Shown one piece after another: positions 7,126 through 20,507 of a DNA stretch of 64,000 nucleotides (position 1 is the first letter of the stretch; every line of letters starts with the position of its first letter). Under the pieces are notes generated by a model. It ran no database searches, was not told where the DNA came from, and saw only the letters and a list, made by a program, of their open reading frames with translations. The stretch is taken from IMG/VR virus record IMGVR_UViG_3300030031_000041, positions 2,764 to 66,763 of that record. One strand, written 5' to 3'. The translations under genes were made by a program, and so were the position numbers. Source of the DNA: a virus.

Positions 7126-7766
7126 TAAAGCTGCCAGTTCTGGCAGACAAAATCCCAAATAATTACAACTAAATATGCGCACGCCCTCTGGGTTTGGACT
7201 GATTCATGCAACTTCCTTGGCATATGAGCGCGATCTGAACCCAGAGGTTAAAAGAAATGAGGTAACTATGGTAAGTAAATATAACGCCGAAAGAAAGTAT
7301 CTCGAAGGGCAAGAGAACAGAACTGATCGAACGTGGAAAGAATATGTCCAGAAATAAATCAATTGATTACGAAGAAACGTCAGATTTCGATTCTGATGAT
7401 GATAACGAGGAAATGTTCACGTTTTAATGAAAGGCGGTTTTAGATAAAAATGAGCAAAGTAAAATCTTATGGTTTAAAAGCCTACGTATCCAATGCATTT
7501 GATTTGCATGTTGGAAAAAGAATTAAATACTCAGAAAGTGGTGAGGACGGAATAGAACATATATACGAAGTAAAACAGATGTTTTCATTTTGCGTTTTAC
7601 TGGAAGATATTTTCGATCACACAAGAATTTGCCCTTGTTATAGCAAATTAAGTTTGATGTTAAGAGGGATTGAATAAGAATCTGGTTAAGAAGATGGGAG
7701 TATAAAATTATGGAGGACTGCACAATAGCGTGTCAGTTGTTTACATAGGGAAAGGGAATAAGAAAA

Positions 7767-13574: not shown

Positions 13575-14331
13575 ATGCCCGAAATGTCATGGGACTGGAT
13601 ATTATATAGAATTTGAAGGTGACGTTCAGTATGCTGTGGAGTGTCAATGTGGAATTAGAAAGAAAACTATTTTGCAGAACCAGTTAAAATTTGCAGAGAT
13701 TCCCGAGATGTATAAAGAATGTACATTTGCGAATCTGAGAAGCAATGTTTATCGGTTGCCGGAAAGCAAAGAAATATTTATTCAGGCAGCAAAAGCTGTG
13801 AAGTACTGGATTGAAAATATCGGAGAGATGCAGGAACAGGGAATGGGATTGTATATCTGTTCCGGTGTAAAGGGATCTGGAAAGACAAGATTTGCGTGTA
13901 GCATGGCTAATGAACTGATACAGAAATACCAAAAATCAGTTAAGTTTACTACTTCATTGAGAATTCTTGAAGAAATCAAGTCCACATGGTCATCCCGTGA
14001 TAATGCGACGGAAAGCAAATTGATTCGTAATCTAACATATGCAGACATTTTGATTATTGATGATTTCGGAGCGGATTCCGGGAGAGATTGGATTAACGAA
14101 AAATTCTATGGGATTATCAACGGACGGTATGTGGATAGAAAAATCACTATCTTCACAAGTAATTATCGCATATCACAACTTCCGTATGATGATCGAATCA
14201 CGAATAGGATTCTGGAGCGGTCTTATGAAATCCCGTTTCCGGAAGAATCAGTCAGGGAACACATAGCGGATGCAATGAAACAGGAACTTATCAAAAAGAT
14301 TCAAGGCGGTGAAAATGGAAAACAAGCGTAA
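13480..14331 (+). CDS. DnaC/IstB-like helicase loader ATPase with N-terminal Zn-ribbon
   Basis: Walker A GVKGSGKT, Walker B ILIIDDFG; overlaps organizer gene end. Confidence 0.7.
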   Translation: MELVEQLQHLSNHLSHSTSGTEEKLQTPHSSECPKCHGTGYYIEFEGDVQYAVECQCGIRKKTILQNQLKFAEIPEMYKECTFANLRSNVYRLPESKEIFIQAAKAVKYWIENIGEMQEQGMGLYICSGVKGSGKTRFACSMANELIQKYQKSVKFTTSLRILEEIKSTWSSRDNATESKLIRNLTYADILIIDDFGADSGRDWINEKFYGIINGRYVDRKITIFTSNYRISQLPYDDRITNRILERSYEIPFPEESVREHIADAMKQELIKKIQGGENGKQA

Positions 14332-14569
14332 ACCGTGGAGAAAATTGACGCCACAAGAAATTCAGAATTTGACTAATCGTCAATGCACAGACTGCAAGTT
14401 CTATCCGAAATCAAACGGCACATCAGGGAAAATGCAACCGTGCGATTATATTTTTATGGTCGGCCATAGTCGAGGATGTGACCCAAGAGATTGCGTAAAA
14501 GAAGGCAAATTTGAATATGCAGCAACAAAGAAAAGGAGAAAAGCATGGAGGGCAAAGACGAAAAGTTAG
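14309..14569 (+). CDS. hypothetical protein
   Basis: ORF track. Confidence 0.4.
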   Translation: MKMENKRKPWRKLTPQEIQNLTNRQCTDCKFYPKSNGTSGKMQPCDYIFMVGHSRGCDPRDCVKEGKFEYAATKKRRKAWRAKTKS

Positions 14570-14690
14570 ATATCACGCCAGAACTGGTGCTTATATGCAG
14601 GAAAGTAATACGACAATACGCAAAGCAAATTGGTAGGCATGATTGCCATAAATGCGTCATATATGCAGAATGCGAGCATGACTTTGTCAG

Positions 14691-14939
14691 ATGCCCGGAA
14701 TTATGGAAGGACATCAGCCTATGAGAAGAATCAGCGAAATGTACAAGCGTTCGGGCGGTACGAACTACGAACATCAATGCTTTGAATGTAGGATGTTTAA
14801 AAACGTTAAAAGATGCAAATGCTTAAATTACGAACTGGATGCTGACTGGAATCCGAATTGGACAGCCTGCAAATTTTTTACAAAAGATGAAATAGAAGAA
14901 ATACAAGGACAGATGAATATTTTTGATTTTGTGAAATGA
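14691..14939 (+). CDS. hypothetical Cys-containing protein
   Basis: ORF track. Confidence 0.4.
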   Translation: MPGIMEGHQPMRRISEMYKRSGGTNYEHQCFECRMFKNVKRCKCLNYELDADWNPNWTACKFFTKDEIEEIQGQMNIFDFVK

Positions 14940-15079
14940 GAGGTGAGCATATGGCAATTGTTACGATTGATGGAAAAGAAATTGACATCGAACAAATTGA
15001 ACTGCCAGAAGAAATTATTAAAATCATAATTGAATGCTTAGGTTGACCGCAAAAATATTGTAGTGTAAAATGTGTCGTA

Positions 15080-15097
15080 ACATGATATGTGCGGCAC
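15080..15097 (+). repeat. inverted repeat arm L (ACATGATATGTGCGGCAC) upstream of recombinase
   Basis: 17/18 match to reverse complement of 16533..16550. Confidence 0.6.
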
Positions 15098-15122
15098 ATT
15101 TCTACACAAAGGAGGAATAGTC

Positions 15123-16487
15123 ATGGAATGTGTTGCGTATTTGCGTGTATCAACAGAAAAACAGGCCGAAGAGGGAAATGGATTAGACAGTCAGAAAAGA
15201 GATATTGAAAATTATTGTAGAAAAAATCAATTGATTATATCTGATTGGTACGAGGATGACGGCTTCACAGGTTCGAATATGAATCGTCCAGCATTGCAAC
15301 GCTTAATTAATGATTGCTCAAAGAAAAAATTAAAATGTGTTGTAGCGTTTAAACTAGATCGATTATCAAGAAGCATGGTCGATGGAATATACTTAATTGA
15401 ACGTGTATTCATACCTAATGGGGTGGATTTTAGATGCGTGCATGATAGTGTAAGCTACGACAGCCCAATGGAGCAAGCATACACTCAGATGATGGCAGTG
15501 TTTGCGCAACTTGACAAAAATACTATGTTGCTTAGAATGCGTGGCGGTATGCTGGAGCGAGTGAAACAGGGATATTGGATGGGAGGTGGCAACACTCCTT
15601 ATTGCTATAGATATAGCAAAGAAGACGGAATCTTAGTTCCCATACCAGAACGCAAAGAAATGGCTTTGCGAGCTATGAATTTGTATATATCCGGTTATTC
15701 TGATGTTCGAATACATAAATTGATAGGATTTAAAAGCGAGTTTGTTACACGACAGGTTCTTACCAGTCCTGTAAATATTGGCATGATTCCGTATAAAGGG
15801 AAACTATATAAGGGAAGACATGAACCAATTTTCGATATTAAAGTATTTGAATTAGCCCAGGAATTAAGAAAAACTCGTAAGCAAAGTAAAAGCTTCTGTG
15901 TTAATCACGAGAATCAGCTCTTGACGGGGCTGTGCTATTGCGGAGTGTGCGGGTGCAAGATGAGATATCAGAAATGGACTCATGGAAAGCATAAAATTTA
16001 TTGCTATTCAAGGGATAACGGCATGTCGTACTTACCAAATTATAATCCGAATTGCAACAATTCGCTTGAGTGGGCAGAAGATATTGAAAAGCAGGTTGAA
16101 GATGAGATTTTAAAGATTTCCCTCAATTTATCATCGCATAAGCCAAAAGAAAGAGAAAGCTGTCTGGACATTTTGAGTAAACAACTCCAAAAAGAAAAAA
16201 CGAAGCTAAAACGTCTATATACTCTTTATGCTGAGGGAAATGATACGGTTTTGGAGATGATAAAAGAAACGGAATCCGGTATAGATGAATTAAAACTAAA
16301 AATACAGAACGAGATGAAGAGCCCGGATAACTCACAGAAGAAAGAATTTGTATACGATAATATAAAAAAGCTTGCCGATGTGTGGGAACACATTGACAAG
16401 CAAAACAAAAACCGTATATTAAAAACTATAATATCAAAAATAATTATAGTCAATGGAAATATTGAAATACAGTTGAAGAAATTTTAG
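15123..16487 (+). CDS. large serine recombinase (integrase-type)
   Basis: VAYLRVSTEKQ..GLDSQ catalytic N-terminus, recombinase and Zn-ribbon/coiled-coil C-terminal region; RBS GGAGG. Confidence 0.8.
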   Translation: MECVAYLRVSTEKQAEEGNGLDSQKRDIENYCRKNQLIISDWYEDDGFTGSNMNRPALQRLINDCSKKKLKCVVAFKLDRLSRSMVDGIYLIERVFIPNGVDFRCVHDSVSYDSPMEQAYTQMMAVFAQLDKNTMLLRMRGGMLERVKQGYWMGGGNTPYCYRYSKEDGILVPIPERKEMALRAMNLYISGYSDVRIHKLIGFKSEFVTRQVLTSPVNIGMIPYKGKLYKGRHEPIFDIKVFELAQELRKTRKQSKSFCVNHENQLLTGLCYCGVCGCKMRYQKWTHGKHKIYCYSRDNGMSYLPNYNPNCNNSLEWAEDIEKQVEDEILKISLNLSSHKPKERESCLDILSKQLQKEKTKLKRLYTLYAEGNDTVLEMIKETESGIDELKLKIQNEMKSPDNSQKKEFVYDNIKKLADVWEHIDKQNKNRILKTIISKIIIVNGNIEIQLKKF

Positions 16488-16532
16488 CACAAACTATATG
16501 CCATAGGAACTGCATTATGTAAGTGCTAATAA

Positions 16533-16550
16533 GTGCCGCACGTATCATGT
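16533..16550 (-). repeat. inverted repeat arm R (GTGCCGCACGTATCATGT)
   Basis: reverse complement matches 15080..15097 at 17/18. Confidence 0.6.
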
Positions 16551-16573
16551 CAATAAATAACAGGAGGGTAACG

Positions 16574-17251
16574 ATGATCTCACAGGGAATCAGCCATACT
16601 GCATACGATACCATGAAAGAATATATGCTCACAGGAGCCGAACTGGACGGCAAATACCAAATTCCAATGATGGACAGGTATGTGGACGAAATACCACAAG
16701 ACACAGTGGATTTTAAAGACAGTTTCAGCCGAAAGATAAAGAATCATCGAGAATTAAGCATCAACTTTTATATCCATGACTGCGAATTTGAAAAGCTATG
16801 GAATAATCCAGATAGATACCTGGAACACTTGAAATGTTTCAAGAGCGTGATCGCACCAGACTTTTCAATGGCAGTCGGTGAAAATGGTATGCCATTTGCT
16901 ATGAATATCTGGAACAAATACAGAAATCATGCCATGGCTCATTATCTCAGTATGAACGAGATAAAGGTGATTCCTAACGTGAGCATACCTCCAGAGTATT
17001 GCTATGACTGGGCTTTTGATGGTGTGCCAAAAAGAAGCACCGTAGCATGTTGCACCAATGGAAGAATTAAATCCAGAGCATCCAGAGAAGAATTCTGTAT
17101 AGGCTTTAAAGAAATGGAAAGGCGCATAGAGCCGCTCCGAGTTATCGTTGTAGGGAAAATACCACCTGAACTCAATACGGACGTGGAAATCATCAATTTC
17201 AAGACCAGAAGTCAGAAGATCAAGGATAAGGAGGGAAAATATGGGGTATAG
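16574..17251 (+). CDS. hypothetical protein
   Basis: ATG 16574 after AGGAGGG; ORF track 16523..17251. Confidence 0.5.
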   Translation: MISQGISHTAYDTMKEYMLTGAELDGKYQIPMMDRYVDEIPQDTVDFKDSFSRKIKNHRELSINFYIHDCEFEKLWNNPDRYLEHLKCFKSVIAPDFSMAVGENGMPFAMNIWNKYRNHAMAHYLSMNEIKVIPNVSIPPEYCYDWAFDGVPKRSTVACCTNGRIKSRASREEFCIGFKEMERRIEPLRVIVVGKIPPELNTDVEIINFKTRSQKIKDKEGKYGV

Positions 17252-18157
17252 TACTGGAAACTCATTGAGAAAGAAATCGAAGACCAAAAAACAGGAAGAA
17301 CGAGAACAGAGGATGAAAAGTGGAACCGCAATAAAGAAGAAAAGAAGCACTGGTAAAGTAGATCATCTAAATAAATTGAAATAATTTTACATTTTCCACA
17401 GTCCCAAAATAGATGCTATAAAAATATTTGTACAAAATTACAAATAAATAAAAATTATAAAACGACCCGTATCCATGGAAAAATGATTTTTTTCGTTCAA
17501 AATCCATGCTTCGGGTCTTTTTGAATGTCTGTGAAAATTAGCGCTCGTGAGGCTTCATAGTAAAGCGATGATACATCAAGGAATATACCCGCGGCAAAGC
17601 ATGCCGCCATCCGATGCGCACGATCATACTAGAAACATTGTAATTAATTGCATAATTGCGCCTAAAATCAATTCGAACGGCATAAGCCTATACTTTATCG
17701 GGTGACGATATAAAACGGCTTAAAAACCAAAAATACAGCGTTACAGCACGAACAGGAACATAAACACACCTATAAATATATCTAGCAAGCCCGTAAACGT
17801 GTATAAAATCAATTTTATATTTACAGTCGATAAAATTCACATGTAAGCATATAAACAGCCGTAAAATGCCAAATAAGTGCTTGCAAGGATAACGAAACCG
17901 GCAACAGCTGCATAAACTGTACAGAATCCAAGTCGGCAATTATCCACATTGACATATATTATCATAATACGCCTGTTATATTTTGCCGTCAATCCTTTTA
18001 GTTGATTGTGTAAAACTGCTCAGAAACGATTTTATAGCCGTATGCGGTATATTTTACCGAAAGCCAGTTATAAACCGTTAAAAGTCGAATAAAAGGCACT
18101 ACAGCAGAAATCCCGGCACAGGTCACGAACCAACGCCGCCCGGAGAGGATGCAGGAC

Positions 18158-18186
18158 ACGAGAAAAATAGCAGCTTTTTACTGCTC
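18158..18186 (-). terminator. intrinsic terminator of minus-strand cassette
   Basis: AGCAG/CTGCT stem followed on minus strand by U-rich tract. Confidence 0.45.
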
Positions 18187-18564
18187 TAAATAATATATAT
18201 TTGTTATCGTTGGCAAGTCCCGGAAGAATTCCAGGAAGCCGGAACTGTCAAGAATATTATACTGGCGGTCAGATGTTGGAATCATGCAGCCGTTTTTGAT
18301 CTCCATACAGGAAAGTTGTAAATATCCCGGTTTTTTCGTGGATTTATGCAGCGCGTACCGCATAACAGACACCGCACCAGACCGGCAGCGCACCGGCGGC
18401 AAGTCGTACCAGATTAGCGGGACAGCACCGAAAGAAACCGTATCAAAGACCTGTTTAGCGTCTCTTTTTGCGGCTGCTCCGATTTTATCAACGGTGGAAA
18501 AATCCCCGCTTAAAATTGCGTCAATGGTCTGTTCTGACGTTGGTTTTACAATTCTGTCTATCAT
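18178..18564 (-). CDS. hypothetical protein
   Basis: ORF track; GC-richer than surroundings. Confidence 0.5.
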   Translation of the reverse strand: MIDRIVKPTSEQTIDAILSGDFSTVDKIGAAAKRDAKQVFDTVSFGAVPLIWYDLPPVRCRSGAVSVMRYALHKSTKKPGYLQLSCMEIKNGCMIPTSDRQYNILDSSGFLEFFRDLPTITNIYYLEQ

Positions 18565-18638
18565 ATATAAGCCTCCATTCTGATTGAAAAACAGGCGGGA
18601 AAGCCCCGCCCGAAATTGTTTTATTTGATTTAAAAAGC

Positions 18639-19007
18639 CTAAATCCTTTTTATAAACTCGGTTTCCGTATAGTTTTCTCCGGTTACCTCATTCACAAATG
18701 CCAAGATTCCGGACTTTGTGAAATCAAAGCGGGTAAAGTCAAAGCCCCTTTGTGCAAGCCTGTATTCATAAGAACGTCCGCAGCCTTCAGCGTCGTAATA
18801 CGTTCCGTCGATATGCAAGGCGTTAGGCTGTACCACTGGACAGCCTTTTTTATTTGCGTCGCGCCTCTGGTAGCTTCCAAAATCCGCAATAACGTGCAGG
18901 CCGTCCAATGTATCAAATTCTGCGCGAACTCTGCAATTTGGAACGTCTGAGCCGTTTCTATAGCCTGTTCCTGTACATCCGTATTCTACTAATGTTATTT
19001 TTTTCAT
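18639..19007 (-). CDS. hypothetical protein
   Basis: ORF track. Confidence 0.5.
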   Translation of the reverse strand: MKKITLVEYGCTGTGYRNGSDVPNCRVRAEFDTLDGLHVIADFGSYQRRDANKKGCPVVQPNALHIDGTYYDAEGCGRSYEYRLAQRGFDFTRFDFTKSGILAFVNEVTGENYTETEFIKRI

Positions 19008-19077
19008 GTTTTTAATCCTCCTGATTTTATTTTAAAAGGCCGCCGGGGAAATGCTCCCCGGTACGCTTGCCGGTCTG

Positions 19078-19677
19078 TTAATCGCAGATATATGACCAAG
19101 AATTCACTTTTGTTGTTCCGTATCTTTTTAAATATGCATCAATCCGTTTTTCGAATGCTTTTCTAACTTCTTTAAAGCCGTCAATAATTTTCTGGATATC
19201 GTCCGCACCCAGCTTTTTTATATCCTTGCAATTAATCCAACGCATCGGGGTAAATTCTGGATTATATCCGGTTCTCACCACCGTGAAAGCCTTTAATTTG
19301 CTGTCGTCTGGCTGTCCCATATAATGAGTATATGTATAACACTCGTATTCATAACCGCTCAAACATTTTTCAAGATCCTCTATATCAGAATCAATCTTTT
19401 TTAGATTTTGTTCTTTAAAATATTGCTCGCTTTTTCGGGCTAATGCTGCCATGTCTTCGGCGTCTTTCATTTCTTCATTGGTGCAAGTACCATAAGAGCC
19501 AGCACCAAAACAAAAGTCCTTTTTTATAGATGGTTTTTCAATATCTGCGATATCTCCATTTGAAAATTGAACCACATAAGCGCAATTTTTCTTTGCAAAA
19601 TTTTGCATGTACTCATCTTCCCATACCTCTGTTTTAATAATACTCATGTACATTTCTTTTAATTCTTTCTGCGTCAT
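19078..19677 (-). CDS. hypothetical protein
   Basis: internal Met MTQKELK chosen as start; upstream extension Arg/Ser-rich and likely spurious. Confidence 0.45.
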   Translation of the reverse strand: MTQKELKEMYMSIIKTEVWEDEYMQNFAKKNCAYVVQFSNGDIADIEKPSIKKDFCFGAGSYGTCTNEEMKDAEDMAALARKSEQYFKEQNLKKIDSDIEDLEKCLSGYEYECYTYTHYMGQPDDSKLKAFTVVRTGYNPEFTPMRWINCKDIKKLGADDIQKIIDGFKEVRKAFEKRIDAYLKRYGTTKVNSWSYICD

Positions 19678-19756
19678 AGCTGTTATACCTCTTTTCTTAT
19701 TTTTTTGAAATCCGGCGGTTGCGTTGGGGCTACGGCTTGACCGCCGCCGGAAAAAT

Positions 19757-20095
19757 TTATTTGATTTTTGTATCTGTCCAGATATCAAGGATACTACGGA
19801 AACAATTTAATTCATCAACGGTAAAGCCGCCGTCATTAATATGGAATATTGCATAATCTCCATATTTTTCGTTTATGTCCTGAACGTAATTATAAAATTT
19901 TTCGAACCGTTCCAGGCGGTCAAAATCTAAAATATACCATTTGTGACCGGCTGGAAGAGTTTTGATAAATTCCTCCGCGTTACTCGGGCAATTGAATGCA
20001 CCCGAAACGCTCACTTTGCTTTTACGGTCGTCTTGTGTGCTGCGGTCGATCATTGTGAAGACTGCCCAACTTAAATACTTTGTATATTTATTCAT
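19757..20095 (-). CDS. hypothetical protein
   Basis: start MNKYTKYL at 20095; upstream part of ORF track is Cys/Tyr-rich low-complexity overlapping operator region. Confidence 0.45.
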   Translation of the reverse strand: MNKYTKYLSWAVFTMIDRSTQDDRKSKVSVSGAFNCPSNAEEFIKTLPAGHKWYILDFDRLERFEKFYNYVQDINEKYGDYAIFHINDGGFTVDELNCFRSILDIWTDTKIK

Positions 20096-20243
20096 TGCTT
20101 TTTTCCTCCATTCTCCCGGCTTTGCGACCGGGTTGGTTGTTCTCTGTTGATGGTTATATAATACTATATATAACGCACATATACAAGACGGAATACTAAC
20201 CAAATAACGCACATATATTAAAGACAAAATTGTGCATAATGTA

Positions 20244-20290
20244 TAACGCACATAGATATATTGACAATCTAACGCACATACATTATAATA
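20244..20290 (+). promoter_or_regulatory. promoter-operator copy 1: TTGACA-17-TATAAT with TAACGCACATA sites
   Basis: exact 47-bp direct repeat with 20505..20551; consensus -35/-10 with 17-bp spacer. Confidence 0.6.
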
Positions 20291-20321
20291 GAAGAAAAAC
20301 GAAACGGGAGGCGGTCGAGTT

Positions 20322-20507
20322 ATGGCAACAGAAGCACAGCGTAAAGCAGTCAGAACATATGAAAAAAACAACTATAGACTTAATATAGTATTTCCCAAGG
20401 ACACCAAAGAACGCATTGAAAAATTAAACCTTAATAAAAGCAATAGCGCATTTATTAGAGATACCGTTCTTGCAGAGCTGGACAGACTTGAAAAAATATT
20501 AAAATAA
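20322..20507 (+). CDS. ribbon-helix-helix (CopG/Arc-like) regulator
   Basis: 61 aa, N-terminal basic beta-strand-like segment then helices; flanked by operator repeats. Confidence 0.5.
   Translation: MATEAQRKAVRTYEKNNYRLNIVFPKDTKERIEKLNLNKSNSAFIRDTVLAELDRLEKILK

Follow-up and report, generated by a model that had tools for sequence, protein, structure and literature searches.

Complementary arms across a phage serine integrase gene and its attP: a candidate RNA element responsive to integration

The integrase locus and its attachment site

The 64,000-nucleotide stretch of viral DNA analyzed here (the window; positions 2,764 to 66,763 of IMG/VR record IMGVR_UViG_3300030031_000041) carries an integrase gene (int) bracketed by an inverted repeat, whose left arm lies at the 5' end of the int leader and whose right arm lies in the 3' untranslated region (UTR) of int, just past the phage attachment site attP (Table 1). 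Complementarity of the arms is conserved in related phages while their sequence changes, and integration at attP separates them. We propose that the arms pair within the int transcript as an RNA element that responds to the integrity of attP. The whole analysis was computational.

The int product, which begins with MECVAYLRVST, contains an N-terminal catalytic Resolvase domain with its active-site serine motif (PF00239; 113.5 bits, residues 4 to 151) and a Zn_ribbon_recom domain (PF13408; 33.2 bits, above the cutoff), and the Recombinase domain (PF07508) scored 19.8 bits, slightly under its cutoff of 21.1. The traits of a large serine recombinase, i.e., the catalytic domain, the C-terminal and zinc-ribbon domains, and a simple palindromic attP, were all found, and by its sequence the product is the large serine integrase of a temperate tailed phage. 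Genes of a DnaD-like and DnaC-like replication module lie upstream of int, and genes for a large terminase, a portal protein, a major head protein, and an endolysin lie downstream. The search for integrase homologues returned 3131 at an E value of ≤1e-30, of which the best 120 were 71 to 99% identical, and hundreds of phage relatives are present in IMG/VR, ENA, and Logan. Megablast of positions 14000 to 18000 against GenBank phages gave no match, and thus the phage has no close cultured relative. Gene content, together with one integrase homologue source-labelled Lachnospiraceae, points to the host.

An earlier note on this DNA had drawn attention to the repeat and to its short distance from two start codons. 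The repeat does exist as described, with complementarity at 17 of 18 positions, far above chance, and the left and right arms lie 25 nt from the int ATG at 15123 and 23 nt from the ATG at 16574, respectively. The sole difference, T versus C at arm position 9, corresponds to a U·G wobble in RNA of the + strand. A repeat search returned the arm pair as 18 nt, 94% complementary and 1435 nt apart. When up to three mismatches were allowed, the arm sequence matched only at the two arms within the window (expected number, 0.03), and none of 100 shuffles gave two matches. Likewise, the duplex score between the 5' UTR and the 3' flank was 17.5, compared to a median of 8 and a maximum of 12 in 300 shuffles. 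We regard the repeat as a functional, non-random feature linked to the recombinase.

attP contains the int stop codon TAG (16485-16487), and many related contigs end or change sequence directly after this codon. Integrated copies match the phage form up to GCCATAGG and continue into host DNA. In four contigs, an integrase identical to that of the window (P0001) abuts a truncated, convergent open reading frame (ORF) of 102 amino acids (aa) encoding a sigma factor, beyond which lie bacterial genes for glutamate dehydrogenase, an aminotransferase, and citrate synthase. The truncated ORF is sigG (NCBIfam NF006071; 163 bits over 96 aa). In a lineage with 74% identity, attR and attL were both recovered from the same provirus contigs, and the crossover lies at the equivalent GG. 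There, attR joins int to the 5' part of sigG, and attL consists of the 3' part of sigG followed by the P' half-site and then the right arm. The reconstructed attB reads AAATTTTCCACTTATGCTGTG-CC-AATGATTATCGGTG and codes for KFSTYAVP/MIIG. The phage thus inserts inside the forespore sigma factor gene sigG, between the codons for ..KFSTYAVP and MI(I/M)GEI (attL in loci L277, L298, and L306; attR in loci L053, L051, and L072; L099, positions 7362 to 7670). Two scans with a right-arm pattern and a lookup of the DUF4417 protein encoded downstream of int returned phage-form contigs only, and attL was found via the right arm of the 74%-identity lineage. A scan of bacterial genome contigs with a degenerate attP-plus-right-arm pattern gave only a chance match, in a Burkholderiales metagenome-assembled genome.

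From these host junctions, the 46-bp palindrome is the true attP. It is distinct from the arms, and the comparison with attP suggested in the earlier note was the fruitful one. As the crossover occurs at attP, the arms are not crossover sites, and as attP lies between int and the right arm, the right arm ends up at the distant prophage end upon integration. Prophage length is roughly 55 to 80 kb, and the right arm is that far from int after integration. Indeed, the right arm is absent 3' of int in integrated forms and present at attL, beside the 3' part of sigG.

Several further observations concern the target site. The integrases of the clade (37 to 100% identity) all target a homologous site, which lies in sigF in L118, L125, and L219 and in sigG in L194, L042, L320, and L327. 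Insertion orientation relative to the sigma factor gene differs between lineages and is opposite in L015, L050, and L200. Excision in a sporulating cell would need to occur in the forespore, i.e., the germ line, unlike that of skin in sigK. Loci of the L180-L193 type have two tandem attP-like palindromes 0 to 110 nt past the int stop codon, with the right arm after the distal one; only the distal palindrome is the crossover site (L194 junction), and the proximal one may be a relic or a second att site. The 77-kb contig IMGVR_UViG_3300045988_082060 (L015, L089) has attP at one end and attR with host DNA at the other, which implies that excised and integrated copies coexisted in that sample. Finally, L320 (MT839977.1), integrated in sigG, has an in-frame TAG at codon 10 of an otherwise intact integrase gene, which may be a sequencing error, as the record is marked UNVERIFIED.

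Conservation of the arms and predicted folding of the int mRNA

For each locus in a subset of the approximately 3100 homologues, the 75 nt upstream of int were compared with the 140 nt downstream, and covariation was judged against shuffles. In every phage-form locus of the window subfamily, the best duplex was formed by the same pair of elements, the left one starting approximately 43 to 52 nt before the ATG and the right one lying 0 to 8 nt after the GCTAA end of attP. Complementarity was found in 58 distinct phage-form flank combinations comprising at least 14 sequence-distinct arm types. The repeat therefore persists in related phages as a kept complementarity with a changed sequence, and the arms read, depending on the lineage, ACATGATATGTGCGGCAC, AACATGATATATGCGGCA, AACGTGATAAATGCGGCA, GTATGATAAATACGGCA, ATCGTGATAAATGCGGCA, AAGTACGATAAATGCGG, AACGCGATAAGTACGGCA, or TGTAGTGAATATG-GCGCATT. 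In integrated forms, the best duplex scores were 6 to 10, equal to those of shuffled controls.

Over an alignment of 30 lineages, the arm helix was 94% paired, with 9 of its 18 pairs changed on both sides (69 cells), and none of 500 shuffles attained the observed covariation score. RNAalifold predicted the arm helix unprompted, with 10 compensatory pairs. The same layout was found with unrelated sequence and compensatory changes in the Dulem virus 39 subfamily (41% Int identity), in five of six phage-form loci; in this subfamily, the leader AAAACCTAGCCATTTC pairs with GAAATGGCTAGGYTTT directly past an attP-like palindrome. No such complementarity between the 5' and 3' flanks was found in distant serine integrases (approximately 30% identity) of Streptococcus Str01, Stenotrophomonas BUCT702, and a Lactococcus-type phage, and the feature therefore appears specific to this clade rather than general to serine integrases. 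A permissive-threshold Rfam search of positions 14800 to 16800 identified no family and returned only three chance-level matches. Overall, the leader and the 3' UTR show conserved complementarity with covariation, and their cotranscription is suggested by the lack of a predicted terminator: none was predicted on the + strand between int and the right arm.

The hexamers of the int promoter-like site, TTGAC(A/C/T) and TA(A/G)AAT, are kept in all lineages. The predicted transcription start, derived from the consensus promoter, lies at approximately 15077 to 15080 and coincides with the start of the left arm. In 12 lineages, the 5' edge of complementarity was within 2 nt of the point 7 nt past the -10 hexamer. 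As this edge coincides with the predicted start, the left arm represents the predicted 5' end of the int mRNA.

Folding predictions place the left arm in two alternative helices. In the leader alone, positions 15080 to 15102 are predicted to pair with the start region of int in a helix of 16+1+5 bp (-20.8 kcal/mol), whose loop contains the Shine-Dalgarno sequence and whose stem is closed by the G of the ATG. In the predicted fold of the phage-form RNA (15079-16565, 1487 nt), the long-range arm pairs had a probability of approximately 1.0 and the leader:start-region pairs a probability of 0. In the prophage-form RNA (L099), core leader:start-region pairs had probabilities of 0.95 to 1.0, and positions +4 to +15 were 97% paired. 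In the Dulem-like subfamily, the predicted partner of the leader is the Shine-Dalgarno sequence itself (13 bp, -20 kcal/mol); addition of the 3' segment would free this sequence, with the predicted opening energy dropping from 13.5 to 0.4 kcal/mol. All 18 lineages tested showed a drop in the predicted energy needed to open the ribosome-binding region upon addition of the 3' segment. The leader:start-region helix was 92.5% paired over the 30 lineages, and in 92 coding sequences int codons 2 and 3 were always GAA TGT and Val4 was always GTY.

A third conserved helix, a local hairpin, is formed by elements H and H' at the promoter. The H:H' helix was 97% paired over the 30 lineages, with three pairs changed on both sides, and was matched by none of 500 shuffles. 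As H overlaps the -10 hexamer, it would be contained only in transcripts reading in from the upstream replication genes. In most lineages, H:H' is followed by a U-rich tract. In such read-in transcripts, the hairpin may open the leader or, with the U-rich tract, may terminate them. In the Dulem-like subfamily, H:H' resembles a canonical intrinsic terminator of the upstream operon.

Downstream of int, no promoter-like site was found between the right arm and the ATG of the DUF4417 gene in the window, and read-through into this gene is therefore expected. In relatives of the L001/L102 type, approximately 120 nt separate the right arm from the next start codon, and the gene there has its own promoter-like site after the arm and a leader of approximately 100 nt. 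Given this different spacing, the 23-nt distance of the right arm from the ATG at 16574 appears incidental. Likewise, the DUF4417 gene is not strictly linked to the int module, as other lineages keep the right arm with different downstream genes and spacing. A further promoter-like site (16393-16420; TTGACA, 16-nt spacer, TATATT; 11 of 12 consensus matches) within the 3'-terminal part of int is directed across attP. Were it genuine, it could serve DUF4417 in the phage form, supply the right arm as an RNA of its own, and fire antisense to sigG in the lysogen. A run of four to six T residues directly follows the right arm in L038, L046, L075, L110, L116, L121, L180, L201, and L257. In L038, L046, L075, L121, and L257, three to four TGTCGC-like repeats with a spacing of approximately 11 to 13 nt occur 20 to 90 nt past the right arm, followed by a terminator-like hairpin; these repeats may be operators or iterons, and the window lineage lacks them.

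The DUF4417 protein encoded beside attP also matches phrog_940 (122.7 bits), a PHROG annotated as a nuclease. A 31-aa ORF (14951-15046) lies just upstream of the int promoter, its stop codon overlapping the -35 hexamer; it was gene-called in nearly all related contigs but not in L116/L117. On the minus strand, positions 18178 to 20371 hold four leftward ORFs without matches in Pfam or PHROG and show a local reversal of both GC and AT skew. By its position, this leftward cluster is probably the lysogeny-control region; relatives carry helix-turn-helix proteins there.

Table 1. Features of the int locus (window coordinates)
Feature	Position	Strand	Description
Int promoter-like site	15043-15071	+	TTGACC, 17-nt spacer, TAAAAT; 10 of 12 consensus matches
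Element H	15068-15077	+	Upstream strand of local hairpin; AAATGTGTCG; overlaps -10 hexamer
Left arm	15080-15097	+	5' end of int leader; ACATGATATGTGCGGCAC
Element H'	15092-15101	+	3' part of left arm region; CGGCACATTT; pairs with H
Shine-Dalgarno sequence of int	15110-15115	+	AGGAGG, read from sequence
Large serine integrase gene (int)	15123-16487	+	454 aa; Pfam domains, homologues, same protein at prophage ends
Start-region segment	15125-15148	+	G of ATG through codon 9; complementary to leader 15080-15102; alternative partner of left arm
attP	16484-16529		46-bp imperfect palindrome TTAGCAC...GTGCTAA; center GG at 16506-16507
Right arm	16533-16550	+	3' UTR of int, 3 nt past attP; GTGCCGCACGTATCATGT
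DUF4417 gene	16574-17251	+	Context only, outside the element; PF14386 (135.6 bits), phrog_8680, phrog_940

Proposed function and alternative explanations

We propose that a long-range RNA helix forms within the int mRNA, with one arm as each of its strands. While the genome is unintegrated (circular or replicating), transcription from the int promoter would cross attP and yield an RNA carrying both arms, which would pair over 18 to 22 bp. Upon integration into sigG, the crossover at attP would send the right arm to the other prophage end, and the int mRNA would lose its partner. Without the right arm, the leader would fold back on the translation-initiation region of int; the right arm could thus be described as an "anti-anti-ribosome-binding-site" that sequesters an inhibitory leader. 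Int would be translated efficiently only while attP is intact, and integration would shut Int synthesis off. Sequence comparison establishes how the locus is built, where attP lies, that integration parts the arms, and that the arms are conserved with covariation in two distant subfamilies. That the arms pair in RNA, as an element dependent on attP integrity, appears rather likely to us. For the full reading, in which the right arm activates Int translation, we estimate a rough probability of 0.45.

Several points weigh against this full reading. A helix with a range of 1.4 kb must compete with translating ribosomes and with cotranscriptional local folding. The leader:start-region helix lacks covariation, as is explained by its start-region strand being coding, and synonymous-site conservation at the start region, suggestive at codons 2 to 4, was not significant overall (sliding-window rank, 84 of 304). 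Compared to matched 3' segments of integrated forms, the drop in opening energy was clearly larger in only five of seven pairs, and in the phage form, too, RNAalifold left a residual 7-bp helix covering the start codon. A Dulem-like phage-form locus, L329, has the leader hairpin without a right arm, and a few A·C mismatches occur in the L001 and Dulem types. The supply of Int for excision is not explained by the model; it is possible that Int for excision comes from read-through transcripts in which H opens the leader, but H:H' with the U-rich tract could equally terminate these. Furthermore, the evidence comes wholly from computation, and the int start was taken from a consensus promoter.

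Among the alternatives, the same RNA duplex could reduce Int instead of raising it, by serving as an RNase III substrate or by destabilizing the mRNA in another way, in which case Int would be low in lytic growth and expressible only from the prophage. The arms form a perfect or near-perfect duplex of 18 to 22 bp, which is long enough for RNase III, and icaR is an example of a Firmicute 5'/3' UTR duplex that triggers cleavage. Cleavage-triggering duplexes of this kind are also known from hbs (PMC5737220), and the element sits across attP from int exactly as lambda sib does (PMC2951348). However, the leader alone is predicted to occlude the start region or the Shine-Dalgarno sequence in both subfamilies, and destruction of the mRNA by the duplex would therefore leave Int low whether or not the phage is integrated. 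Int is also required in the unintegrated state to establish lysogeny. We consider this alternative unlikely. Somewhat less likely again, in our judgment, is the earlier note's idea of paired operators, in which the arms, one at the int promoter and one beside attP, would be DNA sites bound by a protein of the phage (a repressor, a directionality factor, or another regulator) that, for example, represses int or loops it out. An operator classically sits where the left arm and the H/H' dyad do, over the -10 hexamer and the +1 position, and a coevolving protein could also yield arm covariation. However, this covariation is strongest at alignment columns 25 to 34, between the halves of the local dyad, where the spacer between half-sites would be. 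The H-H' loop length varies between lineages by several bp, and the right region is a single arm with no dyad and is not near a promoter in the window. Mismatches, with the terminal pair excluded, are strand asymmetric: G·U on the sense strand accounts for 32 cells at eight positions, compared to 6 cells at two positions for A·C and 3 cells for transversions. The extent of complementarity also slides by a few bases between lineages, and the L180 and L201 types show one-base bulges. Int itself is an unlikely arm binder, since the integrases share the sigG/sigF target while the arm sequences differ completely; a role of the arms as accessory sites for Int was rejected on the same grounds.

A reading in which the arm helix and a U tract form a split intrinsic terminator past attP, or in which the helix merely caps both mRNA ends against exonucleases and leaves translation uncontrolled, seems improbable. 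The duplex would take in the extreme 5' end of the mRNA, and four to six T residues follow the right arm in most lineages, but the window, L001, and L002 types have no such run. Moreover, DUF4417 seems to need read-through in the window, and terminator hairpins with a 1.4-kb loop are not an established class. Lowest in probability, and very low, we place the proposals of the earlier note that the arms are sites of an invertible or excisable unit or the ends of a minimal mobile element with terminal inverted repeats. Their sole support is the geometry of an inverted repeat around a recombinase gene. That the repeat is non-random and linked to the recombinase has held, but its reading as inversion or excision sites or as element ends has not, as the crossover maps to the separate palindrome between the arms and host junctions lie at attP, never at the arms. 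The arms are unlike att half-sites, and 104 of 105 distinct flank combinations have this promoter and left arm upstream of int, the exception (L118) being a misassigned start. An inversion switch was rejected because no inverted arrangement of int between the arms was present among approximately 105 distinct int-flank combinations and because the crossover is at attP; for the latter reason an excisable cassette was rejected as well. Insertion sequence or transposon ends were rejected because the DNA flanking the arms, with the promoter to one side and attP to the other, is conserved along with them.

Relation to known systems

How integrase synthesis is controlled is known in detail only for tyrosine integrases of the lambda type. 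Large serine integrases are widely used in genome engineering, and attention has so far been on their directionality factors; in the literature, little was found on a link between serine integrase expression and integration state. If the proposed activation of Int translation by the right arm is true, a self-limiting device made of RNA and sensing attP integrity would add a new principle to the regulation of serine-integrase phages. It would explain how a constitutive-looking int promoter is tolerated in the lysogen, and it would offer a compact, portable part for synthetic circuits in which expression is off once the cassette has integrated. The exclusive targeting of sigG or sigF in abundant gut Lachnospiraceae would tie the switch to sporulation and to phage carriage in the human gut. 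More tentatively, the element could represent a kind of phage RNA switch not described before, which might be called "positive retroregulation" of serine integrases and in which a 3' element across attP captures an inhibitory leader, Int is made only from unintegrated genomes, and the arrangement is kept with full sequence turnover across a broad clade of gut Clostridia phages targeting sigG/sigF. Literature searches returned no description of such an attP-spanning element of leader and right arm.

Serine-recombinase elements in sporulation genes include skin/SpoIVCA in sigK, SPbeta/SprA in spsM, and gin in gerE (PMC4191935, PMC5025042, PMC5595907). As in these, a large serine recombinase gene lies at the end of a prophage that interrupts the coding sequence of a sporulation gene. 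In contrast, the targets here are the forespore sigma factor genes sigG and, in some relatives, sigF rather than mother-cell genes. No description of a complementarity like that of leader and right arm was found in the literature on sporulation-gene prophages. The locus shares with Hin/Gin-type invertases an inverted repeat that flanks a serine recombinase gene. However, in those systems the repeats are the crossover sites and both orientations coexist, whereas here recombination takes place at attP and an inverted form was not seen.

The mycobacteriophages BPs, Brujita, and Charlie show integration-dependent immunity: their attP is located within the coding sequence of the repressor, which loses a C-terminal degradation tag upon integration (PMC3694055). 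As proposed here, recombination at attP alters phage gene output according to the state of the DNA. Unlike in those phages, in which a tyrosine integrase brings about a change of protein, attP here follows the int stop codon closely and what is lost is a noncoding RNA partner.

Complementary untranslated ends that govern translation or decay of a single Firmicute mRNA, as proposed here, have precedents. The 3' UTR of icaR in Staphylococcus aureus masks the Shine-Dalgarno sequence and is inhibitory. In Bacillus subtilis hbs, the 5' and 3' UTRs pair within one mRNA (PMC5737220). Unlike in icaR, the 3' element here would mask an inhibitory leader and so activate, and unlike in both systems, the pairing would be coupled to a DNA rearrangement.

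The closest parallel is the sib element of phage lambda, a local 3' hairpin that is cleaved by RNase III, which lowers Int. It is a cis element distal to int, across attP, and ties Int expression to the integration state (PMC2951348). The right arm resembles it in lying distal to int across attP and in being uncoupled by integration, as does the int module in its two-transcript logic of a dedicated int promoter and upstream read-through. However, the right arm forms no local hairpin, its partner is a 5' leader 1.4 kb away, and its effect is most likely positive. The enzyme is a large serine integrase rather than a tyrosine integrase, and the host is a Firmicute. As the local RNase III hairpin that marks sib is lacking, the arm element is not a member of the sib family. 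What is new here would be a variation on the known control by integration state, for which the comparative evidence is strong and the mechanism is predicted.

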